Shown: positions 25,822 through 52,140 of the stretch, piece by piece
How the letters are laid out: every line of letters begins with the position of its first letter
Position numbering within the stretch: the first letter of the stretch is position 1
NCBI GenBank assembly: GCA_017499595.2
Contig: CM039000.1
Coordinates: 372,001 to 436,000, forward strand
Origin: Psilocybe cubensis
Lineage: Eukaryota
DNA: 64,000 nucleotides
Direction: 5' to 3'
Made by a program: the position numbers and the translations under genes
Notes under the pieces: generated by a model
Seen by the model: the letters and a program-made list of their open reading frames with translations, nothing else
Told to the model about the DNA's origin: nothing
Database searches by the model: none

Positions 25822-27854
25822 TTGTCTTTATGATATGGTATGATAGGTCCAGCCTAGTGTCGACAGTAACTGTCAGTGTCACGGTAGTGCTTGATGTTGG
25901 ATCAATTAGGTCGTGAACTGCAACAACAAACAGAAAGAATGGCTTACTTGTAGTGGATACAATGCGCCCGGCGTTGAAAAGAAGACTCCAGGAATGAGGG
26001 TTATATACATTATATGGCACCCGGATACACCGCCTTGTCCGTGGGCTGTGGCATGATAGTGATGAGCAGGAGAGCGTGTTTCATTACGGTTCCACCGCCG
26101 GTTGTCGGGGATGTCTATTAATAGAACATTTATAACATTGCTTCACTATTTGGACTTATGCTCCGCAAACAAAAGTGGGATTAGTGGATCACGCTGAGTC
26201 ATTATTAATTTGCAACAAGATTACGAGTGATAGCGCATAATTAACGCTTCCATCTTTACAGTCACTCGGACCCACAGTTCTGAAAGCGCTTCCTCTACTA
26301 CAATTTGTGGTATTCTGTTTTGGACCATTAATCATTGTGGAACGACAGATGTCCATTAATTCATAAAGCTTTGAAAATTCCTTTAATTTAGAAAACAGGC
26401 TTGCACTCGTCTCAGTTATGGAGATAAGCTGCAATAGAATCTATAAATTATGTACTGCTAATAGCTTTAATATAAATATATGATAATTCATAATTCTGTA
26501 AGAACTTAGGAAACAACCTGGAAACAACGCAAACCAGCCTCGATGGGACAAAAATAGATTTCTGTCACCACGTGGTGGCTGTGTACTCAGTTTTTTTTTG
26601 GTTCCGTCCGGACGCATTTGGGCATGTTCTCGAAATAGAAGACATACGTCATCGAGCCCCGCACAGACGCAATGGTTATTTCGTCGCCCAAAAAGGCTTC
26701 CTTATGACTGAATTTGTGGGTGCTTTCGAAAATCTTTTGATTAAAACTCCGATTCATCCCGGTATAAAGCATCGATGGTATTTTGAAAAGCCAATTTTCG
26801 TTTTTCCTTCCCCTGTTTCCCCTCCCCTGTTTCCCTCTCCTCTCGTCTTCCTGCTTTGACAATTTCTTCCCTCGCTGCCGGTCGGTTTCTTGCCTTCGAT
26901 TCAAACAATATCTACATACAGGAAAGGACTAGCCGTAATAGCGGCCTTTACATAAGTGCTTATGCCGGGGAACGTTATCGTGTTTCGGTAAAGGCTCGCT
27001 TTTTTGTTTTTGTTCATCAAAAGGCGCATATAATTAACACTTAATTACAGAAACAATGAATTTTCAACCATGCGACTTCAAGCTCGCGCATATATTAACA
27101 CTTTTTGCTTCCATTATTTATGGAACTTGTTACTTACCTCCTATGGCCATTTGGTTCCCACCTATTGGCAAGTTATATGCGCTTACTTATCCCTATACAC
27201 TATGAGGCTGACAGTCCATGTGCACTCTGATTGGTCACTGGCTTCCAATAATGCGTTTGTAGGAAAAGCTATGTGTCAAGTGGATTTGAATCAAGAAAGT
27301 TTTTTGTCTTATACTTTGATTTGCATGAATTCACTCAGGTCATCCCCCTAGATAAACCATGATATCCATGCTCCGCACTTCGAGGTCCTTATGACTAGCA
27401 CTTTACATCATTTCACTCTCCAGCATTGACTCCGAAAACTCCAGTTCGTTGGCCGAATCTCACCTTGATGTTATCGTCTATGGATTTATTTGTCTAAGAC
27501 TGGATGTGTCCGATAACTGTTTGCCGTGAGTTTTTTTCCAGAGGATGCCCATTCTTGTTTTCTCTTTGTTTGCTCACCATTTAAGGTCGGCCGGTTACTA
27601 TTTCGGTAATTAAGGCACGCATGTCACATGTGAGCTTCATATTCCCACGTCTTTGACGCGAGAGCCGGCACAACAGCTAAATGCGGATGCCGCCTTTGAT
27701 TGTGCTTATTTGTACACCCGAGAAACAATAGGCTTATTGTCCTGGACATTGTCGACTCTAGCATTGTCTGCTATAATTGATTGTATGAGCGAAGTGATAA
27801 TGGTTTCTTTCTTCCCTTTCCTTTCTTTATTCCTTTCTCTTCATTTCCTTCACC

Positions 27855-30800
27855 ATGTCCGCTTACGACCTTCATGACCATTCACCCCGTTCGTCTCTTG
27901 ACTCGAACGACGACATCAAACTAAACACAGTCGACGCGACATCCATGCCCCCGCAACCTTCACCTCCTGCGATCCCCCCCTCCATTCGACTTCTATTTTC
28001 CTTCGTTCCACGACGGAAGCTTCTACTCTTGGTCCTTCCGGCTATTCTCACTTCAATCATCGCTGGCGGCGTTGCTCCCTTTATGACATATGTTGTCGGG
28101 CAAGCATTCGACGCCTTCGCCAAATTCCCCCTCACTCCTAATCCTCCACAATCTGCAAAAGACGAACTTCTTCGAGGTGTAGGGATTGCTGCCCTCGAAC
28201 TCATTGGCTTGGCTGTTGGTGCTTTGGCCTTGAGCAGCATTACATCAAGTCTGTGGATTTGGATTGGCGAAACCAATGTGATGGGTCTGCGCAAGACTAT
28301 CTACACCTCCGTCTCTCAGAAAGATCTCTCATGGTTTGATGGCCATATGGGATCTGAAGAAGACGCTGGTGCTGGAGGTCTTATGGCAAAATTCTCTCGG
28401 TATGGCACTCTTTTTCCTTTCGTACTTCCATTATTCACGCCTTTTTTTCAGAGAAACTGACGAAGTTCGAATGGCTTCGTCCCTTGCATCAGGGATGCTC
28501 ATTCAATATCTTACCACATGCGTTACCTGCCTCATCCTCGCATTCATGCGATCCTGGGCGCTCACTCTGGTCATCCTCTCCGCCCTACCCATCCTTGTCA
28601 TTGTGCAAGGCCTTTCGCAAGGCCTGGCCGCCCCTCGGCTGGCTCACGAGCGCGAACAAACTGCTGTTGCCGCAACAATTATCGACCGCGCTGTTGCTGC
28701 GATATCGACAGTCAAAGCTTTCAATGCTGCAAGCCTCGAACAGTCCCGCGCGAACGACCTCTTTGTGTCCCTTCGTCTGGCAGCGAAGAGTCTAAACAAG
28801 CTATGGGCAATCACATCTGGTATATCACAGTTTGTGATGATGGCTATGTTTGTGCAGGGGTTTTGGTTCGGCGCAAAGCTCGTTAGAGAAGGCAGGATCA
28901 GTGCTGGAGACGTGATGGCTGTCTTCTGGGCTTGCCTGATTGCTTCGAGTAACCTTCAGATGTGCGTTCCTCAATTTATTGTTCTTGCTAAGGGTAAGAT
29001 CGGCATGGCCGCTCTTCTTACTCTTATCGACTACAACCCCTCCGCTCCCCCTTCCCCTCGTAAAATCATTCCTACCAAGTTTTCCGGCGGCCTCGCTCTT
29101 TACAATGTCACCTTCGCCTATCCTTCCAGACCAACTGTACCCGTTCTTTCCGATGTATCATTATTCCTTCCCGCCAACGACACGACGTTCATCGTTGGCT
29201 CCTCAGGATCTGGGAAATCCACCGTCACACATCTTCTTTTGAAGATGTACGAACCCCAGCAGGGTCTCATGAACTTCGATGAATGGGATATGGGCCTTTT
29301 GGATCAAACTTGGCTTCGTTCACACGTTGCGTGTGTTGGTCAACAAGGAGCCGCAGGCGTTGTCATTTTCGATGAGAAGAGCGTTTACGAAAACATCGCA
29401 ATGGCGATGCACGATCATCCGAACGGACCTCCAAGCCGGAGACAAGTGGAAGGTGCCTGCCGTGCTGCATTGCTGCATGAGTTCGTGCGAGATCTACCTC
29501 AAGGCTACGATACCCTTCTCGGTGGAGGTGCAGGCGTTGGTCTCAGTGGTGGGCAGAAGCAGAGGCTTGCGATTGCACGGGCGTTGTTGCGGAATCCAGC
29601 TGTTCTGATTCTCGGTGAGTCCTTTCGCTTTCATACCATGATTCTTTCAGACTTATAGTTCACAGACGAGGCCACTTCCGCCCTCGACGCTACGTCACGC
29701 ATTCTCGTCTTCGAAGCTATCAAGCGTTGGCGACACAACAAAACGACCATTGTTATCACCCACGACCTCTCCCAAATCACCGCTCAGGATTTCGTTTATG
29801 TGCTTAAGGATGGCCGCGTCGTCGAACAGGGGTATAGGTCCGACCTTGAGGAAGTCAAGGCCGATTATGGTAGCGACCAGGGCGAGTTCAAAAAGTTGAT
29901 GGATGCTCAACGCGAGACTGGTGGTTTCCTCCCCGAGAAAGACGACGAGGAGAAGCCTGTGCCTGCTTTGGATCTACAGGAAGAGGCCGATGAGAACAAA
30001 GACAAGGAAATGCCACCGTACCTCAAGCACCAGAGCCTCGCCCTGCGACCAATGACATTCGGCGCGTGGATGTTCGACGTTCTTGACGACCTCATCGGTA
30101 CTAAGCCCGCCATCGCTGCCTCTGCCACCGTCCATCCATCCAACGAAACTCAGGAAAGTCTCGAAAATCAACCACGACGCAAAAGGCGCCCATCTTCGGC
30201 CATGTTTCCTTCGGGTCTTCAGCTTCCAACTTCTCCTGATTCCGCCCATACGGTCAACACAAGACGATACAGCCTCCCTCCTACTCCTACTTCCGCAACT
30301 TTTACTGCTTCCACCTATCGGATGTCGACGGCGACGGCGGCGACAGATAGTGTGGAGGAACTCGAATTCAATTTGCAGAAGAAGACGATGGAGAGGAGTG
30401 CTACCACCGCCCGACAAGTGAGGACTACACGGCTCACCCGCACACGGACCAAGTGGAACGGCAGCGACGCGAATGCTCTCTCCCATATCAAGGTCGAGAA
30501 GTCTGCGGTGTCCGGCGGACCAGAAGATCAAGACGCGGAGAGCGAAGAACCCCTCCCACCGTTCTGGGCGCTCATGCGTATTGCATACAGGTCCATCTCG
30601 CGCAAGCCTCTCCTGTTCTTCGGTCTCGTCGTTTGCGTAATGAACGGAGCCATGACCCCCATCTTCTCCTACCTTCTCTCCCGCCTCTTGTACGAGGTCT
30701 CCATTGGCGCTCAGGACCTCAACGCCATCAACACTTACGGTGGACTCGTGCTAGGCGCAGCGGGTATGGAGGGGTTCCTCCTCGGTCTGAAGTACTTTGT

Positions 30801-32410
30801 CATGGAGACCGTCGGAATCTCGTGGGTCACGTCGCTACGCAAGCGCGCATTCGGAAAGATCATGTCGCAAGATCGTGCATGGTTCGACCTGTCCAAACAC
30901 TCCCCCGCGCGCCTCGTGCAGATTCTCGTCAAGGATGGGGACGACGCGCGGGACCTCGTCGCTGTTGTGTGGGGTCAGATGGTGGTTGTGGTCGCGATGT
31001 TGAGCGTGGGTCTGGTGTGGGCGTTGGTCGCGGGGTGGCAGCTTACTTTGGCGGGCATGGCGATTGCACCGATTTTTGCGGGTGTGATGGCTATCCAGAC
31101 CAAGCTTGTGGCGAGGTGCGAGGTCAGGAACAAAAGAGCGAGGGAGGAAGTCGCGAGGGGATACTACGACGTGAGTAATGGTTATAGTTGTCCAGACACT
31201 GTAACTGATCCATCTTTTGCCAGACGGTTATCAACATTCGAGGCATTCGCTCCATGTCTTTCGATGGCGTGTTCAAGGCCCAATTCGATGCATCCGCTGA
31301 CAAGACTCTGGCGACTGGCATTCGCGGCGGCTTTGTGGAAGGATGCACGTATGGTGTTGCGAGCGGCCTGATCTACTTTGCTGAGGCAGCGTTGTTCTAC
31401 GTTGGCGCTGTGCTCATCGCAAACGGCACATACTCTTACCTGCAAATGGTTCAAGTCCTCAACTTGGTTGTGTTCACTGTTACAATCGGCTCGCAGCTTA
31501 TGGGTTTCAGTAAGTGATCATTTAGTCTGGATAATAATTACATCGTTGACATTTGTATAAAGCTCAAAAGATCGCGAAAGCCGTGCAAGCTACTGCCGAC
31601 TTCAACAAACTCTCCAACCTCGATACGGTTACTCATGAATCGTACGGCACGCTTTGCACTGACCTCTCCGGCAACATCAACCTCAACGCTGTTAGCTTCA
31701 CCTACCCATCCCGCCCTCTGGCTCCCATCCTCAAGAACGTCGATCTCCGCATTCGCGCAGGCGAGTGTGTCGCCATCGTCGGTCCTTCAGGAAGCGGCAA
31801 GTCGACCGTCGCCTCACTCCTTCAACGCCTCTACGAGCCAACTTCCGGTTCGGTCACCATCGGCGGCGTCGACACGCGTTTCATGGACGTTGGATACCTT
31901 AGAGATCACGTCTCGGTCGTCAGTCAGCAACCTCACCTGTTCGACGCGAGCATCTCGGATAACATCCGCTACGGCCACCCGACGATTTCAGAGGTCGACA
32001 TCCGATATGCTGCAAAGAAGGCAAATATCCACGAGTTTATTATGGGTCTGCCGCAAGGGTACGATACCCACGTTGGAGAGAACGCGTCTCTTATCTCGGG
32101 TGGTCAAGCCCAACGACTGCAAATTGCCAGGGCGTTGGTACGGCCATCGAACATTTTGATTTTGGACGAGTGCACGTCGTCGCTGGATACCGAGAACCAG
32201 GCGGCGGTGCTCGAGGCTATCTACAGCGTCAAAGAAGAAGGCGGGCGGACGACGATCATGATCACGCACAATTTAGAGGCGATGATGATGTGCGACCGCA
32301 TTGTTGTCGTGCAAGACGGCGAGGTTGTGGAAGAAGGTTCCTATGACTGGCTCATGGAACGCAAAGGCGTGTTTGCTAGTCTTGCACGCGGCGGCGAGTG
32401 GATTGGGTGA
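27855..32410 (+). CDS. STE6: Full-size ABCB transporter, Ste6/Hst6-like lipopeptide pheromone exporter
   Basis: TMD-NBD-TMD-NBD layout. NBD1 GSSGSGKS, LSGGQKQR, ILDE; NBD2 GPSGSGKS, ISGGQAQR, LDECTS. Long Ser/Thr-rich linker and four introns. Confidence 0.85.
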
Positions 32411-38498: not shown

Positions 38499-40367
38499 AT
38501 GATGCTTTTAACAGGCGCAGCTCTTGTTATTGGAGCTCTGTCTTTCGCTCATGTCGCTAGTGCTGAGCCTACAGTCGACCGGTTGGTTTCAAAGCGCTAT
38601 CTCGAGAAGAGAGGTTCTGGGTTTGCGAATGGTGGCAATCGGTTTAATAGTGGCAAGGGGCCTAATGGGAAACCGGTCAACAAGGCCAACTACGAACTAT
38701 CCTTCTACCATCTAAACGATGTTCACGCGTATGTCTCCTTTGTACTCCGTGTTTGATAATAACCTCACTCCTGCTTTTCTATAGTCATCTTGACGAGTTT
38801 CGTTCCAGCGGTTCTTCATGTACAGACACCACAAAAGGTGAGTGCAATATGACCGATCACTATTTATGGCATCTAATCAGCACATAAGGCTGCGTCGGAG
38901 GATACTCTAGGGTCAAGACTGTCATCGATTCGAAGAGAAAAACGAAAAAGAACTCCCTCTTCCTTAATGCCGGCGACGAATTTCAGGCGAGTAAAGTTCA
39001 CCAATTGCTTATCTTGCTCTCTCATATTGTTTTAACTTCAGGGAACGCTCTTCTATACCTTGTTCAAGGGGGAGAAGATAGCTCAGACCTTGAATCAGCT
39101 TGGTTTTGACGCGATGACCCTTGGAAATCACGAATTCGACGATGGAGACGACCTTCTCGCAGCTTTCTTGCGCAACCTCACGTTCCCAGTTATCTCTAGT
39201 AACATTCATTCAAAGAACCGGAAACTCGCAGCAGCTCTGACGCCGTTCAAAATTTTCAACAAGCACAACCTGGCCTTGATCGCTGTTACTACAGAAACCA
39301 CCTCGACTATCTCTAGTCCCAGCAATCTAACCACGTTCGAGGACCCAGTGATCGCCGCCAAGAACACGGTCAAATTCATCAAGAGGTACTATCCTTATAT
39401 CAACCGCATTGTCGCGTTGACCCATATCGGATACGACAAAGATATCGAGCTTGCGAAATCGACCAGGGACATCTCTTTGATTATTGGTGGACACTCGCAT
39501 ACTTTGCTCGGAAATATGACTGGAGCACAAGGCGCGTACCCGACTATCGCCACTAACCTGGACGGTGACGAGGTCTTCGTCGTCACGTCGTACCGATGGG
39601 GAGAGTACCTTGGATACATCGACGTCGAGTATGATAGACGGGGAAAGATTGTCTCCTATGAGGGGGCACCTATTCACTTGACAAACGCTACCGCTGAATC
39701 GCCTAAGCTAAAGGCTCAGGTCAAGAAATGGTCGGGCGCATTTGCTGATTATGCTAACACAGTCCTCGGTTCCACAGAGTTTCCCCTCATTCAGACTACA
39801 TGCCAGCTAGAAGAATGCACCCTGGGATCTTTTACTGCTGACTCGATGGAGGACTACCGCCCCACTGTCGACGGCGCGATCATCAACGCCGGTGGCATCC
39901 GCGCTGAAATCGACGCGGGAAACATCACCCTGCAACAAGCACTCGAATGCTTCCCCTTTGGAAACAGTATCGCTGAGCTCGATTTCACCGGGGCGCAGCT
40001 GTGGGATATCTTCGAGGGCATCGTGTCGAAGAAGAACCTTGTTACCGACGCTCCGGTGACCAGCTTTGTGCAGATTTCAAGGAGCATCCGGTTCACATAC
40101 AACCCTGCCAATCCCGTTGGGAGCCGTCTCATCACCTTGAGCATCAAAGGCCAACCTATTGTCCTCACCAAGACGTACAGAATCAGCACACTGGACTACC
40201 TTGCGACTGGAGGTGACAATTTCTGGGCTGCACGCACGGATTTTGTCTCCCTCGACACTATGGACGAGGTGTGGGCGGATTATGTGAGGGCCGTTACGCC
40301 CATCTCATACAAGGTCGATGGCCGAATCGCGACGACCACTGAGACGGTTCCCCAGAAAGGGGTTTAA
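38499..40367 (+). CDS. Secreted 5'-nucleotidase (metallophosphoesterase plus 5'-NT C-terminal domain)
   Basis: Signal peptide, HLNDVHAH, NAGDEFQGTLFY, LGNHEFD, ALTHIG, GGHSH, NAGGIR, FPFGN and DYLATGGD. Three short 5' introns, one of them GC-AG. Confidence 0.93.
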
Positions 40368-40669
40368 GGTATTTATGAGATGATGTATTGTATTCCTATT
40401 TAACTCATCGCTACCCTTGGGGTATTCCACTCTTTACCATATACCGTTTTCGCTCATTAGAATACAACTATTATTAATAGTCCTGATTCTTCGTAGAGTT
40501 GCTCATGTGCTCCTTTGAATTGGAGGGCGGTGAGCTCGACCAGGCTTCACCGAGTGAAAAGTCGAAAACTACGAATGTACAATTGCACACGGAAGATTTT
40601 ACATTTTTTGAATTGTACGAGAGGTGATATAATGTTCGAGGCTCCTCTGCCATTGAACAAAGCAGCAAA

Positions 40670-43281
40670 CTACCAACCGATGATACCCAAAGGGGCCTTG
40701 AAATCTCTCCTGGGGAGGAACACACCCTGTTTTCCGTGATCTGCAGAGCTGTTATCTGGATCTGGAATGCCCAATGCGCGACGCAGGGCAGGAGGCGCGT
40801 CGTCTCTGCCCACATCGATTTCGACCAGCTGCAGGCAGTTGTTGTTGCGGATCTTTTGGACATCCAAAAGTTTTCCGAGCTCAGTCTCTTTGGATACCTT
40901 GTACGTTTTCGTCTCTATTGGGTTTGTTGTACTGGCGAGAACCTTTAACAAGTCGCCGTAGCTCCATGTGACGATGTTGTGGTATTCGCTGTGGTAAATT
41001 AAACGTGCGTAAGCCTCACGGTAGTCTATTGGTTCGTCAATTTTAAATGTTAAAACTGACCCTTCCACATTATGCTGCAGTCGCTCAATCGTGTATCCTC
41101 CATTAGTAATGACGAAGATGATTGGGTTAATACCCGAACGCATAAAGCCCGAAATTTCTTGCACCGTCATTTGGCTGCCGAGTCATCATCAGTGGGGATG
41201 GATGTGAGCAAATTAAAGTTTGGTAGAAAGAGAAGGTGCACGCACAAACTACCGTCTCCGATAAATAGAATTGTCTTTGGGGCTTGGGCACCTTCGATTT
41301 CTCTGCGTGCAAGCATAGCACCATGCGTCGCGCCTGTGTTTAACATTTTAGTGTGTATTATTCGAGCATCGCATTATACATAAACTGACCCATAGACCAT
41401 CCTATACTGGCCCATAGCTTCTGGGCAAGAAGAGAGGATCCTGATGGAAGAGGGAGGTCGAGAACACCGTAACTAACGCTACCTATTAGGCCACAAACAA
41501 AATTTAATGTGTGTACATTGTATGAGAGCTATAAGCGTACCTGCTTCTGTGATAATCAAGTCGTTCTTCTCAAACCATGCTCCGAGGCGCCACCACAGCC
41601 AATCATGAGTGATTTGCTTGTCGGAATCCGTGACTGGCTTAAGTTCAAATTTGGGAACAGTGAGCTTGCTAGCCCGGTTCTTAAAGTCCTTAAGACGCTC
41701 TCCAAGTTTTGGTAAAAGTTCCTTCATCCCCACTCGAGCGTAACTTGCGAATCCAACTTCGGTGTGGTCGTAGTGAATCTGTTGAAGGGAGGCCGGTCCA
41801 TCAGTAAATGCCGCCAAGGTGGATATTGGGGATGTACATACCTTGATAGCGTTTTCGTCTTTAATTTTATAGGAGAATTTTCCAGAGTTGAAGTCGGTTG
41901 TGAGAGGACCAATCAAGACAACAAGCCTCGCTGACTCGACCTTCTTCTTTACCTCAGCATCACTCAGATCACCAATGTATACCTATAGAAAAACCTATTA
42001 AGTTGATGTCATCAGTTTATCAATGTGAAGAAAAACTAACCCCTCCGTATCTAGGAGACGTTTCGTCGACGACAGTCTTCCCAAGAGGCGTTCCGTAAAC
42101 TGGGAGATCTGTCGCCGCTAAAAAGTCGGCTACCTCTTTCTTGCAATGATGGCGACTAATGCTGACGTCCGCAATTACTAGGACATTGTTATCCTGCCAT
42201 CCCGCAAAGGCTTCAGTGAAGCGTTGGTATATGTGGGTGATTGCGGTGCTCTCAGCGTCCTTGTTGTTTGGGATTTCTTCCTTCTTCAGAGGCTCATGAA
42301 GCCGGGTTGTGACAATTTTGGTATCGACGAGGTCGGCCGGAAGGGCTATGTAAGCGGGGCGGGACTAAAAGGACGTCAGCTCTGTTACAATTAATGAATG
42401 TTGCTTGTGAGCAAAATACCTTGCTAATGCAGTCGACGATGACTTTGTCAATACTTTGGTCTACGACGCCCAGGCCAATTTCCTTCTTCGACAACAAAAA
42501 TTGGGAACATATATATGGAGTGGTGGATTTCGCAAATGTATCGTATCTGGTTAATTTGAAAGTAGCGTTCGAGATTAATGGTTGTTATGTATGAGCAAAA
42601 GAGCCGTTCAATGACGTACTTTCCGTCTCCCAAGGTGTGTATAACATTGAGCCCTTCTTCTTGATCAATACTGGGCTGTTGCCCAACGATGTGGAGGATA
42701 GGTAGCTCCTCTGCAAAAGCTTTGCGCTAAGAGTCAGAAGCGAAATTCAAACAGTCAGTCGAGTAATGCTCACATCCTGCGACGCCATTGATGGCAGAAA
42801 GCTCACCAACGCCAACACTACATTCAAATGTTTTAAGATGTGGCATGAGGGAGATAGACAGAGTAATGAACATACGTGGTAGCTAGCACACCGAGTCCTC
42901 CTCGGTAGCGAGCATATCCATCAGCAGCATAGGCCGCAATTAGCTCATTGCTGTAAACATTCGAGGCGTCAATAAATTAGAGTTGCTCGACATCGAGCGC
43001 CTAAATGATGTCACCATTCTCCGACCCATTTGATGCTGGAACTCTCTACATTATCCTGAATATTAATGACTGTATTAAGTATCTGACCTAGAGCAGTTCG
43101 TTGATGACACACATACCAGGAAATTTGCAAGGTACGATCCGGGAACTCCGAATATAGACTTTGCCAATGTTCTGTCAAATGACCAATCATCACGAGAAGG
43201 GGAATAAGTACTTACCCTAATGTTCTGCTCTTCGAGCCTACGAACGATATAGTTGCCAATTGTAATTTCTTCTGCAGCCAT
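40670..43281 (-). CDS. Pyruvate/indolepyruvate decarboxylase-family ThDP-dependent enzyme with atypical active site
   Basis: Many exons splice in frame: FGVPG, CNELIAAYAADGYAR, GVGELSAINGVAG, HTLGDG, LWASIGWS, and the ThDP/Mg motif GDGSLQMTVQE...TNGGYTIER. Confidence 0.92.
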
Positions 43282-44531
43282 AGATCAAGAAAATTGGATG
43301 AGGACTGAAGTACTGAGGGGGAAAGTCTGGGTGACGTTGGAATATAAATGCAAATGGTCAAGCTAATTTATCAAAGTGGACGCACTCACCTTTGGTTAGA
43401 AGTCCTTACGTAAAAGCAACCCCAGAACCACAAAAGAATGAATCGATGGTGGATAATGTCTATCTATCTTTGACGACTGGCCGTGAACAATGAAGTGACA
43501 TGTTCCTTGTACCCCTGTACATGGGCTTAAGCACATGTTCCAGCTTCTCCGGTGAGATTATAACACCGGCACTGCATCTCCTCAACTTAGAAGCAACAGT
43601 GCAAGTTAATTTGGGTCTTCTTTGACATCATGGCCCTAAAAAGGTCAATGGAACTCCACATTTGTTGGAGATATATGTGTCGAATGTAAAGCTGCACGAA
43701 AATTAGTTATGTGCTAAGATAAATGTGAGATTGGAAGAAGGAAACTTGACAGGGTCAAGGGCCCTGACGAGGTACATCGACAAGCTAATTTGCGGTGAAC
43801 GAACGAATGGATGAATAGGAGCTCGAACTTATTACAACTAGTACGGATGGTCCCCTTCATTGAATACAAACTTCTATTGTAACGCCGCTGGGTATTACTG
43901 GACAATTGACAGTTAAAGAATGTAGTAAATGAGATGTTGGAGATATTGGGGAGGTCAGATTAGCACCGGAAAGAAGCCATCGGTGACTCGGAAGCAAAAT
44001 TCATTTCGATGTGATCATAACGCGGTCCAGGGGTCGCCAGTTTCTCTCCAAATTCCCAAGAAACTTATCAATTAAAAACAAGGGATACAGGTTATTAACT
44101 GTATATGATCTCAGGCGTTTTAAGACCCCCGATTATACGATAATCATTATGATGAAAGATAATGTCATTTTCTCCGCAGCTGAGACTCCAATGTATTCTG
44201 ATGATCCAAACACGAGGTGGGGTTGAACATTCTAGCTCTCAAATTTTGGCAGCTAGGGAGAAAACGCAAAGACGACAGCTGGAATTGTGGCGATATGAGG
44301 AGCAAGAAATTGATAACGTCCCGCCACAATAAACGAAGAAGTCTTGTGGACCTGTTGTGGCTAAAATACGAAAATAACTTGGTGACTTGCGCTGTAGAAA
44401 GAAGAATGACGCCGGAAGTCACTTTCCTGAACTACAGACGAAAAATTTCATGAACATTGGAAAGGTATAAAAGCTCCAGCCTCAAACACGAAGACCGCAG
44501 TCCGACTTTCGAATCGTCTGATATTGCTACC

Positions 44532-46659
44532 ATGGCCAATACCGCTGGGAAATCAGATCCGTCCTCTGTGTATATCAAAGCTACGCAGTACTTCGTCAAC
44601 CAGAAATTGGAGGACCTAAAAAACAAGACCTTCGACTTCAAGGAGATTTCACAGGGAGACAAGCTTACTTCTGGATCGCTCTCCTGGAATGAACTGCGCT
44701 CTGACTTCCAGGAAGATGTCATCACTTCATCTCGCGTCGCTATCATAGGTGCTGGTGTGGCGGGCCTCAGGACTGCCATGCTTCTGGACAAGCTCCAAAT
44801 ACCCTACAAGATTTTCGAGGCCAACGATGGTCCGGGTGGTCGCCTTTTCACCTACCACTTCCCATCCGATGACAAGAGTCCGGCTGGGAAGCATGACTAC
44901 TATGAAGTTGGAGGAATGCGCTTCCCTGATAACGCTGCCAACAAGCCCACTTTCGATCTGTTCAAAGAACTCGGATTCCACTTCCGAAATGACCAGAATC
45001 CAAACGGGGAACTTATCCCTTTTGTGTACGGCCTCGACGACAACATTAGGTACTTCAATAGTAAGTGGTTTTATCAATTGAAAGTATTATTTGCATAGTG
45101 ACTCACATATTTTGTTTAGACATCACGTCCACGGCGAGACAGGTGGCGGATGGCTTCAACCTTTTCCAAGAAGCCACTCCAATCGGAAATGTACGCTTTG
45201 ATGTTTTCGAAATCCATGTACTGTTAACAAGTCTCTGCAGGTCCCGCAAGACTTTACAGATATGATCGACACCGATGAACAGGGAAATGTGTACCGCGGA
45301 GTGGATGCTTGTTTCTATAAAGCCTTTAACGGACTTCGTGCCAAGCTTCTCGCCAATTTTGACGAAGAGTGGCCAAAGCTTTTAAAAGAATGGGACTGGG
45401 CATCAACGCGTTCGTACCTTGCTCAGGGACCAGAGTTGAAATTCCCAACCACTGTCATCGATTGGATTGAGAAGCACAAGTCTGGAACTGGACGCTACTC
45501 AAGGGCTGTAGTCGAAGTGAGTGCAATTTCTATAGTTATTAATTTGAAGAGCCTGACCACGTACTTTAGGAAGTTCTGGAATCCATCACCTTTGATCACC
45601 CCAGGTCTGAACATTTCGACTGGTGGTGCATCGAAGGCGGCAGCGAAGGATTGATCAAAAAAATGCTCAGCACTCTGTCGACTCAGCCGACCTATAACAG
45701 CCGCGTCACAGCAATCTCTGAGCAAACCACCCTTGACCCATGCAAACGTATGAGGGTCAGCATTCATGGCCAAGGTGACGAATACTTCTCGCATGTCGTT
45801 TCCACCGTCACCTTCTCTGTCCTTCGCACCATCGACACCGATGGCGTGCAGATGAACTTTGGTCAACGTGAGGCCCTTCGAGCTCTGAACTACGGCCAGT
45901 CTATAAAAATTGCGATGAAGTTCAAGAACCGCTGGTGGGAGAACAAGAATGTTGTTAAATCGTCTCAAGCCGGAGGAGCGAGCCGAACCGACAGGCAAAG
46001 TCGCGTTGTCGTTTATCCCAGTTACGGTTTGAATGAAGATGGGCCTGGTGTTCTGATGGTCTCCTACAATTGGTTTGTTTTTGTCATTTACAGCTGAAAA
46101 ACGCTAAACGCACTGTTTCAGGGACCAAGATGCCGCGCGTTTCGGTTCGCTGATCAAGAACACCGAATCTCGCACTGAACATCCAACCCCTGGCCGAACT
46201 CCAACCAAATTCGAGCAGGTTCTCCTGGACCAGATCTATGAGGATCTCACCATATTGCACGCGCCTGACAAACAAAAGCGAGCTGAATTCAAGAAAAAGT
46301 TGATCGATGATACCCTCGATTTCCATGCATTCGACTGGTACCACAACCCATACACCATGGGCGCTTTTGCACAATTCACGCCGGGACAGTTCAGCACGCT
46401 GTACGCCGATATCTTGCAGCCTGCTGGACGTCATGGAAACTTCCACTTTGCCGGGGAGCTTGCCAGCCACCACCACGCGTGGGTTGCTGGTGCCATCGAC
46501 TCTGCTAATCGTGCCGTTGGCCACATCGAGCAAGATCATTTCACCAAGGCGAAGTGGTACAAGGCGGGCTCCAAAGTGCCCAGGAGTTTGGTGTTTGATT
46601 CTGATGATAGCATGGTCCTATATCACTTGCTTGGAAAGGTCACGGAGCAAGCTTCGTAG
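44532..46659 (+). CDS. L-amino acid oxidase / flavin amine oxidoreductase
   Basis: TATAAA near 44465. Rossmann VAIIGAGVAG, GGRL, EVGGMRFP, IEGG, VVVYPSYG, MGAFAQF and FAGE...HAWVAGA. Four introns. Confidence 0.92.
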
Positions 46660-47243
46660 GGAAAGATTGAGGTAGCGTGGTATGACACAACCTAAAGAGG
46701 CATTTACGGATATTGAGTTAAATCGAATGTAAACCATCAGTTTTGTCAATTCAAGATATGGTGAAGAACGTACAAAGATGTTTGGAGTTATTGTTAGGGC
46801 TTTCAACTAGTTTGAGACGCAGTTCGAGACGTTTGCTGCTGAAAATGCCACTGGAATGGAACGATAGGACTCGGACGGGGGTGTAGTATGAGGGTGGTAG
46901 GTTTCCCAGCGAGTCGGCAAATACATTTTTTCTGATTATCCCGGAATCTCTAGTGAGATCAATTACTCTTCGAAGAGGATAAGTTGGCTCAAGTGTTATG
47001 AAGAACTTGCGAAGAAAGGGCAAGAAATAATAGTAGTTGCATTATGTAAGTTCTACACGTGACCGTGTAACCATAACCCTATACCAACTGGTTCAACTTG
47101 GGTTGGGCAACACTGTCTCGTCTCGTCTTCCTTCTCTGGTCTTTTCTCTTGCTTTTCTCCCTTTCTATTCTCCCTGGCCTATGAATATTAAAGAAATATC
47201 TTTATAACCGGATCATTCGTACTATAGCAGAAAGCCTTCAGAG

Positions 47244-49688
47244 ATGTCTGTCAAATCACCTGCTAAAGCACAAGGCACCTCGAAGGATGTAGGCTTTATT
47301 CCCGTCGTCTTTCCTTTGGACCGAAATATGCCATTTTCGCCGTCAATTAAAGCTGGATCCTCAAGTAGAAAGGGATCCAGCAGTCTTTCATACATGGAAA
47401 GGCTCCAGCAGAAGCACAACGCAATGGCACGGATTGCACGAGACCAACCGCGATCCCTATCGCTCAGCGACCAGAACACAGAGGTCGACAATGAACGCGT
47501 CCTTTTGCTGAGCAAGAAAGTCCGCGAAGCATGGCTGAACACGGATGCAAACTCGGCGGATGGTAAATATACGTTTTTGGCACAATTACTGCGCCTGAAC
47601 TCAACCAGCGGTCTCGATGGCCGCTGGAGCGCCGTGCGCACCGATCTTCCACCTGCGGAACAGCTTCCTGGAGCGCGCTGGATTAACGCAAAGACTGAAG
47701 TGGAATGGAAGGAGTGGGAGAAGAGGTACGAGACGGAACGAAGGATCAAGGAAAAGGTGGAGAAGTGGAAGAAAACGGTGGAAACGCCCAGTACGCAGCC
47801 CAGTTTTCAAGACAGCTTGGTATCGAACTCGGCTTCTGCTCGCAAAGGCTCCAAGGCAGCGTCTGCCAGCATCCTTTCAGTCCCCGCAGATCCGTTGAAA
47901 AATTCCACACCCTTCGGATTCTCTGTCGTCAAACGTGTTCAGAAATCTGCTGTAGGCAAACCCTCTGGATCGGGGTCAGGTAAAGCAACAGTACCACCGG
48001 AGAAACCTGGAGATAGTGCCTCTAAACCTACAAAAAGTTCACATAATAAACACATAGCTGAGTTGGGAGAACATGTATGTATTTCCATTTTCAACACTTT
48101 TTACCAACTCAAACATGTATCTTAGTCTTTTATTCCTCCATCCTTCCCTCCATCTCAACTCCTAACATCGACACCTAAACATGCTGCGAAACCCTCCAAT
48201 CCCCGAAAACCTGATCCAATACCCCACATTGCCCCGCCATCAACTTCTGAGAATTCCATCTTACCCGATCAGCCTCTATCCTCGCCTCGAGTGACCAAGA
48301 CATATGGTCGTCAACACCCAAGTCCGAGCCAACCACTCGAGGCATCTGCCTCTTTACCTGCGATACCCGTCACCCCTACCCGCAAGAGAAACCCCCATAA
48401 TGACATTAATGACGACCTAAATGACGACGACAGTGTCTTCAATCTTAACAAGAAGCGACTCCTTGCTTCACCTGCGACACCCGATAGCAATACTAACAAG
48501 GAAAGGGCATTGAAGAGAGCGCGCACCCTTTCTGAACTTCAATCTTCTCCTGTGATACCTCCTCCAAGCAATAGAAGGGACAACGCCAATGTGCTTCGAA
48601 GTCCTCGCACTCCTATCACCTCGAAACGCTCTGTGCTCCCTCCCGTTGCTAACCCTCCTGTAGCAGCTACATCCGAGTCAAGCCCTGATCCATTGTTGGA
48701 AGCGTCCCCATATCATCTTGGGAATAGTCCCAAGAAACAACCTGCCATTGAGGTACCCACTCTCATTAATCTTCTGGCAAGCGCGAAGAAAGGAAAGAAG
48801 ACCAGCTCTTCCAAGCCTCCCAGTGCATCCAAGGGTAAGGGAAAAGCCAAGGAGACCACAACCCTGGATGCGGAAGATGGAGTACAAGGCAAAGAATTAC
48901 ACTCCGATGTCGGAGATGATGTGCATGAAAAACCGCCTGCTGCACCGTTCCTTTTCCCCGAAGCTGTAGTTGAAGATGCAGTGATGACAATAGCGAAGGA
49001 TACAGCAGAACAAGAACCGGTGCATGCAGACGTCAATGATCTCCCCGAGAGGGAGAAGGACCACCACTTGTTCGAACCTTACGGCAATTCTGTTGTAATG
49101 GCGTATGAAGACCCCAATCTTCTCCCTGTTGATGATGCTGCGTCCCCGGCCAAGTCTCTCTCGTCGCTGGCAGGCTCTGACTCAGAAGATGATGAAATTG
49201 AAAACGTCGACGATGGGAACAACTTCCTGCTTTCTTTCAACCCGGTGGCTACATCCACCCAGCAGCATCGAGGTCCATTCGCCAGCTCGGCTTTGAGAAA
49301 TGAACTTGGCGCAAACAATGTCTCAGCGGAAAAGGAGAGTCAGCCCCCACCAAATTTGAGTCAAATGACCAAAGATAGCTGGGAGAGCATTTACGCGCCG
49401 ACGTCGATGCCCAAGTCGAAATCAAAAGCATCCTCCAGCAAGTCCAAGTCGCCCGTGCCGCAGCCACAGCCGCGACATTATCAGATACCAAAAACGGATC
49501 CGGTTACGAGCTCCAATCCATTTGCGTATAGCTCGCAGCTCACATCCGGTGTGGCGAAGAATGTTTATGATGTTGACCGGCTTCTAGAGCAGGATGTTGA
49601 GCTTGCGTACTCGGGATGGATCAGGGATCCTTATGCGGATGAGATCGAGGACGCGGATGGGTTCAAGGATCCTGAGTCTAGTCCTTGA
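47244..49688 (+). CDS. Hypothetical Ser/Pro/Lys-rich, largely disordered protein
   Basis: Two long ORFs joined by a GT-AG intron (~48074-48125). Many S/T-P sites and basic clusters; no recognisable domain. Confidence 0.75.
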
Positions 49689-50070
49689 TCTGTATTGAGA
49701 CTTCGTAGGTCATCTTGATGATATCGGCCATGTCATGCTGTATATACGTAGGAGGATCTTATGAATGATACACTCCGATTACACCATTGTGCGTTACAAC
49801 TTGTTTTTACATTAGTTTGCAGTATATATTTGCCTTATAGCATCAAATGTGTATAACAGCGCGTTTCATTGATGCACTTGAAATATTTTTTCGTTATCCC
49901 TGATGAACTTGGTGTGATTTCTCTTGATACCTTCAACTTGGAAGCTTCACAAGCACAACGCGACGGGAGCACGCACGTGACACCGCTCGTTGTTCGATTC
50001 CAATGTCAGCCGAAAAACAAATGCTCTTGTTCTCGTACTTATCGTTCTCAGCGGGATCCTTATTGTCAAG

Positions 50071-52140
50071 ATGAGTAGAAGGGAGTCGCGCTCCTCACTG
50101 GGTGCAAGACAGAACGATGCGCTGGTAGAATTTGAAAACTGTGAGTATGCGACACGTTTAGGCGGTCGGAACACGAGTTTTGATACACTGGTGGCATATC
50201 CCAGTCAAGAAGAAGTTCCTGTTGGCAAATAAGCATATTACAAAGTATGTACTATATAACCGATACCAATTCCTTAAACTGATCGTTATCTAGGCTTAAT
50301 TCAACACTAAGCGTTCGCATCGAGGAACTAAACGCACAGATATCTACGCTCTACGTTGAAAACCTTCGGTTGCGGGCATCCGAGATCGCGCTGACAGCGC
50401 AGCTCAAGAAGGAGCGGGAAAAGTCCCAGAAAGTGATAGCTGATGCAGAGACTGCGGTGAGTCCCATGTCAAGTCCTGTGCCACCTGGTCAGATAGTTTG
50501 ACTGTACACCCCCAGGCCCAAAACCTCGCCAAACATCTGATATATCTCCGCGAGACCCACAATATACCCACTGTTTCAAACGACCCTCCTTCCCCTCCTT
50601 CACCCCGCGCGCGACGTCCGGCGCTCGATGTCAGCCCGAGTTCACCTCAGTTGAACCGTATCTCGCGACCCCCCAACGTGCCCGGAATATACGAAGAAGA
50701 CGAGCCATCTGGATCCTCAGAGGAACGTGCAACACCCCCGCGAAAGAAGACCAAGTCGAAACCGAGGCTATCAGCATCAAAGTTACCCTTACCCACCCGA
50801 GCACCCTCACCCACGCCTACCGGATCGAACGATGTATCAAAACCTAAGAAAACTATTCGCAGGCAGAGCGGTTTGTTGAGTGTAAATACGGAGGTTTTAT
50901 CGGTGCCTCGGTCGGGGAGTCCTGCTTTTGGATCACCGATTCGTCTGGAGGCTGGCCGAGCTGAGGAAGCCGAGGAACTTGCTGCTGTGCACGGAGAGTT
51001 GGAAATCACCATAACACCAAAGAAGGAGAGACGGAAGGCTAAATCTAAGGAAGAGCCGGAAGGTGAAGTTGTTTCGAAGCCACCAAAGGAGAAGAAAAAA
51101 CCCAGAGAAGAGGTAGATTCCTCCGACATTTTGAAGCCAAAGGTGAAGGATACTACTGCCCCCCGAACTGCTCTGCAGCCAATTGATAGCAACGGTGCGT
51201 GTTCTGGTATTTTGATGTATCAAATCTCATGGTTTTCTGTAGTCTATGAACAGACAAATACAGATGGAAAAACATTCCTACGCCCAGGATCTCCCAGTGG
51301 GTCAGCGCCCACATCGCGTGGTTCGACGAGTCCTGTACCAACCGGTTCTTCCGAACTAGACGGTACGCAGAACGCCAACGGTAATCGGGAGAGGCGGACG
51401 AGGAAGAGTGTTAATTATGCTGAACCAAAGCTTAATACGTACGTTCTATTTATATACCTGGCACATTCGTCATTTCTGTGCAAACTGACATCGAGCCGAC
51501 CACACAATCCAGGAAAATGCGGAAACCTGACAATGTTCCGGGGCTAACAGAACCAGTACGCAAAAAGCGGTCCTCCGCAGCCGCTGTTATGACAAGCACT
51601 TCGTACAAGCCTCCATCATCATCGTCGTCTACTGGTAATGATGTTGACCAGGATGATATTGATGAAGAAAACATTTTAGTATCATCGAGCGTCGGTGTTC
51701 ATCCGGCACCTATTCCCCTACCGCTGCGAGGCACCAGCGGCAACTATATCAATCCCGAACATTTCCCTCTCCCTCCGTCTCGCCCTGGATCAGCTGCAGC
51801 AATGTATTCTCCGGGACCTCCGACACGGACAACAGGATCAACGACTTCTGGGGTGTCTGTCACATCGTCTTGCTCAATATCAACATCTTCTTCAAATGCC
51901 ACTAACATCACGGTGAAGAAGAAAAGGTCACGGCCGCAGATCTCGGCTCTTAGTGACGAAGAAAGTGATGGTGCAGAAGCAGACGAAGAGTATTTGGGCA
52001 GCGGTGCAAGCTCAAAAGTCACGGGTTCAGGCGCGTGGGTCAATGTAGAAGGGCGCCGGAAAGCGCTTCCAAAGAGGAGCGCAGCTACTGCTGCTGTAGC
52101 TGCCATGGAGGATATCAGGCGGCATAGCATGATTATATGA
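50071..52140 (+). CDS. SGO1: Shugoshin
   Basis: N-terminal coiled coil FKKKFLLANKHITKLNSTLSVRIEELNAQISTLYVENLRLR and SGO motif RRTRKSVNYAEPKLNTKMRKP. Confidence 0.92.

Follow-up and report, generated by a model that had tools for sequence, protein, structure and literature searches.

The current analysis concerns two divergently oriented genes of Psilocybe cubensis, which lie within a 64,000-nucleotide stretch of contig CM039000.1 (positions 372,001 to 436,000), referred to here as the window. The minus strand encodes a member of the pyruvate decarboxylase (PDC) family of thiamine diphosphate (ThDP)-dependent enzymes and the plus strand encodes an L-amino acid oxidase (LAAO) of the LAO1 type, with both genes diverging from a shared spacer that presumably serves as a bidirectional promoter region (see the table for all coordinates). 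When the exons of the PDC-family gene are joined, using junctions read from a contig of the public run X1, the exact translation is P0001, entitled “Pyruvate decarboxylase [Psilocybe cubensis]”. The joined LAAO exons likewise give P0009 exactly, for which the database title is “Putative bifunctional amine oxidase”. Queries consisting of a single exon also matched these P. cubensis proteins, at 100% identity in the case of P0001 and at 99% identity across 98% of the query in the case of P0009. A preliminary description of this DNA had reported an intact LAAO gene and an intact PDC-family gene on either side of a 1.25-kb spacer. This observation was correct in every particular, since the exon models reproduce P0001 and P0009 exactly and their start codons are separated by 1250 bp. 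The spacer contains no open reading frame (ORF) of at least 110 aa.

By its fold and cofactor site, the ThDP enzyme is a PDC-family protein, just as the oxidase belongs by its sequence to a known and characterized family. TPP_enzyme_M and TPP_enzyme_C domains were matched by the exon ORFs of the gene, the complete three-domain ThDP fold (PYR, TH3, and PP) is recorded for P0001 as PF02776, PF00205, and PF02775, and its closest solved relatives are K. lactis PDC (2vjy, E 2.8e-118) and S. cerevisiae PDC1 (1qpb/2vk1, E about 3e-115), both over residues 4-568, followed by KdcA and IPDC. Residue correspondences were obtained by aligning P0001 to the K. lactis and S. cerevisiae PDC structures and are given in the numbering of the PDC chain. 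According to this alignment, the enzyme keeps everything needed for binding and activating ThDP, namely the cofactor-activating Glu51, the GDG...N Mg/ThDP motif, and Ile415, plus Glu477 and His115. Its active site is altered elsewhere, as the preliminary description had suggested in calling it a non-canonical ThDP enzyme: Asp28 is replaced by Ser30, His114 by Ile116, and Ile480 by Gln493. Yeast PDC relies on Asp28, His114, His115, and Glu477 for acid-base catalysis and on Cys221 as its substrate-activation (allosteric) site. Yeast Ile480 is equivalent to Ile476 in the Z. mobilis enzyme, the active-site residue given in the title of one mutagenesis study. Two catalytic features of a true pyruvate decarboxylase (EC 4.1.1.1) are consequently missing from P0001, Asp28 and the HH motif (here Ile116-His117), and a third, Glu477, is present as Glu490. 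Because Asp28, His114, and Ile480 are all replaced and the allosteric Cys221 is lost as well, the enzyme is probably not a pyruvate decarboxylase, and it should not carry that annotation. In the paper that sets out standard numbering for this superfamily, position 28, the equivalent of Ser26 in benzoylformate decarboxylase, affects decarboxylase activity in ScPDC, ZmPDC, and benzaldehyde lyase, His114 and His115 define the HH motif of PDCs, and the S-pocket is shaped by positions 476 and 477 (PMC3534367).

These replacements are not peculiar to P. cubensis. A search with full-length P0001 returned 3060 matches at E 1e-20 or better, of which the best 120 were used for a signature alignment of 121 sequences. 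Among the matches listed, the relatives of P0001 comprise six full-length proteins at 63-71% identity and one partial protein, which come from two environmental sources and from the genera Hypholoma, Gymnopilus, Phlegmacium, and Hebeloma. After this group, which we refer to as clade A, the listed matches fall to 47% identity or less and are canonical Agaricomycete PDCs. Position 28 is Ser in all seven clade A members having a residue there, whereas the 112 other Agaricomycete PDCs comprise 107 with Asp, 3 with Glu, 1 with Ser, and 1 with a gap. Position 114 is Ile in 8/8 members versus 109 His and 3 Asp among the others, and position 480 is Gln in 8/8 members versus Leu or Ile in 112/112. The resulting Ser/Ile/Gln signature is common to all 7 full-length members of clade A. 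In total, 23 positions are fixed in clade A and differ from a majority of at least 85% elsewhere (these include Cys221Ser, Val410Lys, Leu423His, and Asn488His), and the proteins share a C-terminal extension of ~35 residues ending in an invariant Gly-Trp. In an exhaustive HMMER search of 1.84 billion cluster representatives, clade A formed a single 50%-identity cluster with P0004 as its representative, and the next representative was found at 44% identity. When the query, P0122, P0053, and the 149 nearest 50%-identity cluster representatives were aligned (152 sequences), the query alone carried the Ser/Ile/Gln signature.

The remainder of the protein is well preserved. In a 7-sequence alignment of clade A, which averages 80% column identity, Glu51, Glu477, His115, Ile415, the GDG...N motif, and Asn471 are invariant. 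Of the listed differences that separate the X1 strain from the window, 10/14 in the PDC-like gene and 23/24 in the LAAO gene are synonymous, and 64 further differences lie outside these counts. Since the signature is invariant, the ThDP-binding and other catalytic residues are kept, and the strain differences are mostly synonymous, the clade A pattern is one of changed function under selection rather than decay. Canonical PDC paralogs accompany the clade A gene in Gymnopilus (P0116) and Phlegmacium (P0042). For P. cubensis, no canonical PDC was present among the best 120 of the 3060 matches, a set too partial to judge its absence. A metagenome scan with the clade A alignment, from which 80 loci were kept, did not find a clade A locus. 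The best of these loci was 45% identical and the rest were 31-40% identical, being mostly intron-less, bacterial or yeast-like PDC/IPDC genes, so the scan provides no additional synteny evidence. Likewise, the ESM Atlas yielded generic PDC clusters only. Separately, an otherwise canonical PDC of Amanita thiersii (P0098; His114, His115, Ile476, and Ile480) has Ser at position 28, which may be a gene-model or alignment artifact or else an independent change.

A second non-canonical group of PDC-like proteins, clade B, consists of P0053 from Gymnopilus (KAF8898132), P0106 from an environmental source, and P0122 from Galerina, and exhibits Glu28, Asp114, and Thr476. Quick trees unite the two clades, with SH-aLRT (Shimodaira-Hasegawa-like approximate likelihood ratio test) values of 97 and 95. 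When the PDC tree is rooted with yeast-like and bacterial PDCs, for which four metagenome loci served as outgroups, both clades nest inside the Agaricomycete PDC radiation. Their stems are long, at 1.0-1.3 for clade A and about 0.5 for clade B, and the A+B grouping may arise partly from long-branch attraction. On these trees, the clade A enzyme is a fast-evolved paralog of Agaricomycete pyruvate decarboxylase.

The identity of the oxidase is more straightforward. P0009 is 70% identical (451/646) over its full length to HcLAO1 of Hebeloma cylindrosporum (P0012; ADM80414/ADM80415, “L-amino acid oxidase 1 [Hebeloma cylindrosporum]”), its exon ORFs match the Pfam families Amino_oxidase (PF01593) and NAD_binding_8 (PF13450), and a GAGVAG motif is visible in the protein. 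Among solved structures, Trichoderma L-lysine oxidase (E 4.6e-83) and hcLAAO4 (E 1.3e-79) are nearest to P0009. In a 22-row tree, P0009 falls within an LAO1 clade of 7 rows with a support of 100, together with Gymnopilus, two Hebeloma, two run-derived sequences, and a partial Leucoagaricus protein. P0009 therefore combines the flavin amine-oxidase fold and its N-terminal dinucleotide-binding motif with orthology to the purified HcLAO1. Being 70% identical to this purified and characterized enzyme, P0009 presumably deaminates L-amino acids oxidatively to yield 2-oxo acids, ammonium, and H2O2. The title of the paper on HcLAO1 (Nuutinen et al. 2012, Microbiology 158:272) states a preference for glutamate. 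Of two papers that cite it, one ties LAAO ammonia formation to nitrogen supply and mentions a substrate scope narrower than that of hcLAAO4 (PMC7568252), and the other gives a 67-kDa monomer, a dimer, a pH optimum of 8, and broad specificity (PMC7248570). Neither P0009 nor P0001 contains a signal peptide, a hydrophobic N-terminus, or a segment resembling a membrane span (maximal 19-residue hydropathy of 1.34 and 1.38), and it is plausible from their sequences that the two proteins occupy the same compartment. LAO1 orthology favors a catabolic role over one in specialized metabolism, because the LAO1 ortholog has been linked in the literature to nitrogen mineralization and to a glutamate preference. 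H. cylindrosporum encodes two LAO1 copies that are 94% identical (P0012 and P0030), the second of which, KIM41688, is located on the same contig six accessions away. The oxidase seems to have been duplicated locally, with no second PDC-like gene among the matches listed.

One of the key features of the locus is that its gene pair appears to be conserved in relatives, which bears out the synteny that the preliminary description had proposed to survey. Outside of P. cubensis, adjacency was judged from the accession order of database proteins and from the equal sizes of their contigs. In 4/4 species where both a clade A protein and a LAAO were found, their accessions are consecutive on one contig: P. 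cubensis (KAH9483490 and KAH9483491, contig size 4186456), H. cylindrosporum (KIM41681 and KIM41682, 1068939), Gymnopilus junonius (KAF8880218 and KAF8880219, 103452), and Phlegmacium glaucopus (KAF8810967 and KAF8810968, 404115), the PDC-like protein being listed first in each case. Galerina marginata presents a paralogous pair, composed of the clade B protein KDR71801 (P0122) and the LAAO KDR71802 (P0028) on a contig of size 714093. This LAAO is a paralog with 75% identity to a second P. cubensis oxidase (P0027; KAH9481894), which is encoded on another contig. In the P. cubensis window, consecutive accessions correspond to direct neighbors, and by the same accession order the genes would be direct neighbors in Hebeloma, Gymnopilus, Phlegmacium, and Galerina as well. 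Their divergent orientation was seen in P. cubensis only. Adjacency also tracks the non-canonical clades, because canonical PDCs and LAAO-family matches are located on contigs of different size in Mycena pura, M. sanguinolenta, Panaeolus cyanescens, and P. papilionaceus. Since each family has few copies among thousands of genes and the pairing recurs in other species, the adjacency looks like more than chance, as a rough estimate rather than a computed test. No fusion of the two activities was encountered: five long PDC-family representatives (P0153, P0224, P0246, P0178, and P0276) have no amine-oxidase domain and two long LAAOs (P0019 and P0027) have no ThDP domain. We also found no literature linking a fungal LAAO to a neighboring PDC-like gene, in a survey that did not cover the original LAO1 papers, which may describe neighbors.

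Both genes are transcribed in X1. Contigs from four public runs (X1-X4) were placed on positions 38500-48500, and X1 and X2, which are only guessed to be RNA, hold spliced contigs. A 1736-nt contig of X1 crosses the PDC-like gene with all 13 introns removed (its joints appear as CT..AC on the plus strand), and a 2344-nt spliced contig with GT..AG joints covers the LAAO gene, beginning at 44457 inside the spacer. Contig depth for the PDC-like gene is 604 in X1 versus 6-7 in X2, and that for the LAAO gene is 104 versus about 5. The corresponding values are 148 versus 69 for the downstream gene (47.1-48.5 kb) and about 6-9 versus about 7-9 for the upstream 5'-nucleotidase gene. As a sign of shared expression this comparison is a weak hint, contig depth being a poor measure of expression. 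The spacer contains 8 HGATAR sites compared to a mean of 4.1 per 1250-bp window, which is not significant, as 6% of such windows reach 8, and it contains 0 CGG..CCG and Gcn4-type sites. An unspliced 173-nt contig of X2 (depth 6.9) also lies inside the spacer at 43884-44056 and may represent DNA carry-over or else a transcript that is upstream or non-coding.

The surroundings were examined with Pfam, covering 37 stop-to-stop ORFs (10 + 27) in the 24-64 kb interval and restricted outside of the pair to ORFs of at least 110 aa. The recognizable neighbors are listed in the table. Among the 37 ORFs there is no dehydrogenase, aminotransferase, catalase, P450, or core synthase. Nor do these ORFs include the core synthase (polyketide synthase, nonribosomal peptide synthetase, or terpene synthase) or tailoring enzymes of a secondary-metabolite cluster. 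The unit is two genes only. Downstream of the LAAO gene, the long Ser/Pro-rich frames probably make up a single large shugoshin-like gene, and both RNA-like runs show splicing there at 48074/48126. Compared with the window, X3 and X4, the contigs of which are unspliced through introns, are missing 12 bases at 47186, immediately upstream of this long Ser/Pro-rich ORF. On the other side of the pair, X3 and X4 have extra short contigs at 40212-40324, including a 99-nt piece, and a 60-nt record fits both 40212-40241 and, on the opposite strand, 40281-40310. Both runs have loose ends at 40324, and X3 depth rises there from 90 to 142. The pattern is suggestive of either a small inverted repeat or allelic variation within the 3' portion of the gene for the 5'-nucleotidase. 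Further away, positions 14001-16000 are a compositional outlier unlike the rest of the window (G+C 0.536, GC skew -0.20, and AT skew -0.27).

Table. Coordinates of the gene pair, of active-site positions in P0001, and of neighboring features in the window (residue equivalents in yeast PDC numbering).
Feature	Position	Strand	Remarks
PDC-family ThDP enzyme gene (clade A; P0001)	40670..43281	-	603 aa, 14 exons; ATG at 43281, stop 40670-40672; 13 GT..AG introns of 54-73 nt; joints taken from a spliced X1 contig
PDC-family exons 1-7	43281-43216, 43158-43117, 43055-43015, 42950-42876, 42817-42774, 42719-42620, 42546-42420	-	
PDC-family exons 8-14	42364-42041, 41982-41842, 41778-41541, 41482-41390, 41333-41246, 41174-41061, 40988-40670	-	
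ThDP-enzyme domains in exon-sized ORFs	40670-43284	-	
Ser30, codon TCG	43135..43137	-	position of Asp28; changed
Glu52			Glu51; kept
Ile116, codon ATA	42640..42642	-	position of His114, first His of the HH motif; changed
His117	42637-42639	-	position of His115; kept
Ser233			position of Cys221; changed
Ile426			Ile415; kept
Asp457			Asp444; kept
Asn484			Asn471; kept
Ile489			Ile476; kept, just upstream of Gln493
Glu490			Glu477; kept in 8/8 clade A members
Gln493, codon CAG	41075..41077	-	position of Ile480; changed
Divergent spacer	43282..44531	.	1250 bp, ATG to ATG; presumed bidirectional promoter region
LAO1-type LAAO gene (P0009)	44532..46659	+	638 aa, 5 exons; ATG at 44532, stop 46657-46659; 4 GT..AG introns of 49-59 nt
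LAAO exons	44532-45060, 45120-45190, 45241-45516, 45570-46072, 46122-46659	+	
Flavin amine oxidase in exon-sized ORFs	44454-46659	+	
ABC transporter	27801-32410		large, two ABC_membrane and two ABC_tran regions; within a stretch of raised G+C (0.52-0.56)
DUF6534	34.8-35.5 kb		Pfam
5'-nucleotidase	39.0-40.4 kb		Pfam
Ser/Pro-rich long open frames	47208-51547		Pfam; Shugoshin_C motif at end (E 7.7e-6)
Putative cyclase	53.6-54.3 kb		Pfam
Kinase fragment	55.7-56.1 kb		Pfam

Based upon these features, we favor the reading that the pair constitutes a conserved, divergent, oxidase-initiated module resembling the Ehrlich pathway, in which a LAAO would supply 2-oxo acids for ThDP-dependent decarboxylation. 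We consider the prospects of this reading to be evenly balanced. The LAO1-type oxidase would convert L-amino acids to 2-oxo acids, ammonium, and H2O2, and the neighboring PDC paralog, retuned away from pyruvate, would accept those 2-oxo acids and decarboxylate them, most likely to aldehydes. Such a module would permit amino acids to be used as a nitrogen source, with ammonium being freed irreversibly and the carbon skeleton disposed of. We infer the metabolic coupling, decarboxylation as the reaction, and this physiological role from the combination of the two proteins: 2-oxo acids, the product class of LAAOs, are the substrate class of PDC-family enzymes. Retention of Glu477 and His115 along with a Ser28 like that of benzoylformate decarboxylase is compatible with decarboxylation, and the missing Asp28 and His114 would suit a carboligase just as well. 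Within the favored reading, 2-oxoglutarate may be the substrate, a possibility raised by the glutamate preference that the HcLAO1 title gives and by basic or polar residues that the clade has gained. The auxin and volatile routes mentioned in the preliminary description are analogies only.

Several points weigh against this reading. Mutating Asp28 or His114 reportedly cripples yeast PDC, in work ascribed to Liu et al. in 2001, and on this account the enzyme may have low activity, act as a carboligase, or lack catalysis altogether. The expression comparison amounts to n=2 runs of one study by contig depth, and adjacency outside of P. cubensis is judged from accession order and contig size. All of the pair-bearing species belong to related Agaricales families, and for this reason inherited microsynteny could explain part of the conservation. 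In Phlegmacium, the LAAO partner (P0017) shares only 43% identity with P0009 and is placed outside the LAO1 clade, where the tree is unresolved, and in Hypholoma sublateritium, which has the PDC-like gene (KJA15249), one search did not find a LAAO partner. Furthermore, LAO1-clade or related LAAOs occur in Leucoagaricus, Mycena, Panaeolus, and Russula without a clade A protein among the matches listed, which indicates that the oxidase does not need a ThDP partner. Some of the same observations speak for uncoupled neighbors, i.e., genes held together by inherited synteny and perhaps by shared nitrogen-regulated promoters, with the PDC-like enzyme acting upon an unrelated pool of 2-oxo acids. The pair-bearing species are fairly close relatives, the Phlegmacium partner comes from a different LAAO subclade, and LAO1-type oxidases are found elsewhere without a listed clade A protein. 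However, two different paralog pairs (A and B) both display the LAAO/PDC-like adjacency, canonical PDCs and LAAOs are on different contigs in four Mycena/Panaeolus species, and, as established biochemistry, one enzyme class yields the substrate class of the other. On balance, we regard a lack of coupling as rather unlikely.

It is also conceivable that the module is coupled, as we propose, with the ThDP enzyme being a carboligase, an option also raised in the preliminary description. In the absence of Asp28 and His114, the enamine intermediate would not be protonated to leave as an aldehyde and would attack a second carbonyl, forming an acyloin or acetohydroxy acid as a small specialized metabolite. 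Yeast PDC D28A/E477Q variants are said to accumulate carboligation products, Gln occupies the place of Ile480 (Z. mobilis Ile476), and the Ser/Ile/Gln signature is strictly conserved. At position 28, benzoylformate decarboxylase has Ser and benzaldehyde lyase has Ala, and both enzymes are used as carboligases (PMC3534367). An artificial cascade composed of a LAAO and a ThDP acyloin synthase works (PMC9822442). Even so, Glu477 and His115 are retained, and the 37 ORFs scanned around the pair did not reveal the tailoring enzymes, transporters, or regulators that characterize fungal clusters. We know of no acyloin natural product common to Psilocybe, Hebeloma, Gymnopilus, and Cortinarius, and the literature describes the oxidase ortholog as a broad nitrogen-mineralizing enzyme. 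For these reasons, carboligation would be a decidedly unlikely outcome. More improbable still is a PDC-like protein without catalysis, either a ThDP-sensing or regulatory protein as proposed for yeast Thi3 or a decaying enzyme. Two residues important for catalysis by yeast and Z. mobilis PDC are indeed lost, as is the allosteric Cys221, but the invariance of Glu51, Glu477, His115, Ile415, GDG...N, and Asn471 in clade A, the 80% mean column identity over 7 sequences, the mostly synonymous strain differences, and the fully spliced, high-depth contig in X1 all argue otherwise. A more far-reaching version of coupling would have a LAAO and a neofunctionalized PDC paralog forming an old agaric pathway that was retained twice, with Ser/Ile/Gln in clade A and Glu/Asp/Thr in clade B, and with a chemistry new to the PDC family. 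This scenario strikes us as unlikely. Under it, the chemistry may be a dedicated decarboxylation of 2-oxoglutarate to succinate semialdehyde, an option in keeping with the title of the HcLAO1 study, which gives a glutamate preference, and with the gain in the clade of Lys421, His434, His501, and Gln493, residues that may lie near the active site. Alternatively, it may be a stereoselective carboligation leading to an acyloin metabolite.

If the proposed coupling is true, litter- and soil-dwelling mushrooms would naturally possess an alternative to the Ehrlich pathway that starts with an oxidase instead of a transaminase. As the oxidase route would release ammonium irreversibly, it bears upon nitrogen mining from amino acids by mushrooms. 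The analysis also singles out an uncharacterized PDC-type ThDP subfamily, along with a sister subfamily, in which catalytic acid-base residues were rewritten and then conserved. Biocatalysis groups engineer ThDP decarboxylases at positions 28, 114, and 476-480 for new substrates and carboligations, and cascades of a LAAO with a ThDP enzyme have already been built artificially (PMC9822442). The locus therefore offers a directly testable gene pair for questions of both nitrogen use and ThDP-enzyme function.

When the pair is compared with known systems, P0009 most closely resembles HcLAO1, with which it shares its clade, domains, length, and lack of a signal peptide, and the Hebeloma accession is also consecutive with that of a clade A protein. 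Unlike HcLAO1, the Psilocybe protein is known only as a sequence. The lao cluster of Gluconacetobacter diazotrophicus, an LAAO route to indole-3-acetic acid via indole-3-pyruvate, offers a similar case of a natural LAAO, not a transaminase, feeding a 2-oxo acid pathway, but it is bacterial and its partners are a cytochrome c and RidA rather than a ThDP enzyme (PMC5053998). P0001 shares with the yeast PDCs (2vjy and 1qpb/2vk1) the three domains as well as Glu51, His115, Ile415, Ile476, Glu477, GDG...N, and Asn471, whereas Ser28, Ile114, Gln480, Ser221, and the C-terminal extension of ~35 residues set it apart. Like Pseudomonas putida benzoylformate decarboxylase (PpBFD), it has Ser at position 28 (PpBFD Ser26) and no His at position 114 (PMC3534367). 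However, PpBFD is not a close relative, as it is not among the 33 solved sequences that P0001 matched with E values up to 1e-10, and the likeness is limited to one or two positions.

The preliminary description had further drawn a parallel to the ScyB/ScyA pair of scytonemin biosynthesis. ScyA and NzsH are acetolactate-synthase-like ThDP enzymes. Acetolactate synthase matches P0001 at residues 10-112 only (E 5.5e-11), benzaldehyde lyase similarly matches its N-terminal ~100 residues (E about 1e-11), and the nearest solved relatives of P0001 are PDC, KdcA, and IPDC, which speaks against a ScyA-type acyloin ligase. What ScyB/ScyA and the NzsH-type acyloin synthases would share with the present pair is the order of events proposed here, amino acid deamination followed by a ThDP enzyme acting upon the 2-oxo acid (PMC9822442). 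The intact divergent genes, the non-canonical ThDP enzyme, and the apparent conservation of the pair stand from the preliminary description, and its scytonemin-like example is an analogy only. The proposed module would work like the Ehrlich pathway of yeasts with its first enzyme exchanged. In yeasts, a transaminase is followed by the 2-oxo acid decarboxylase Aro10/Pdc and then by an alcohol or aldehyde dehydrogenase. The proposed module would similarly convert an amino acid through a 2-oxo acid into an aldehyde, its second step being assigned to a PDC-family enzyme, albeit one having altered catalytic residues. It departs from the Ehrlich pathway in that no aminotransferase occurs among the 37 ORFs and no dehydrogenase lies beside the genes, the gene paired with the ThDP enzyme encodes a flavin oxidase, the first step would be irreversible and H2O2-forming, and the two genes are physically paired.

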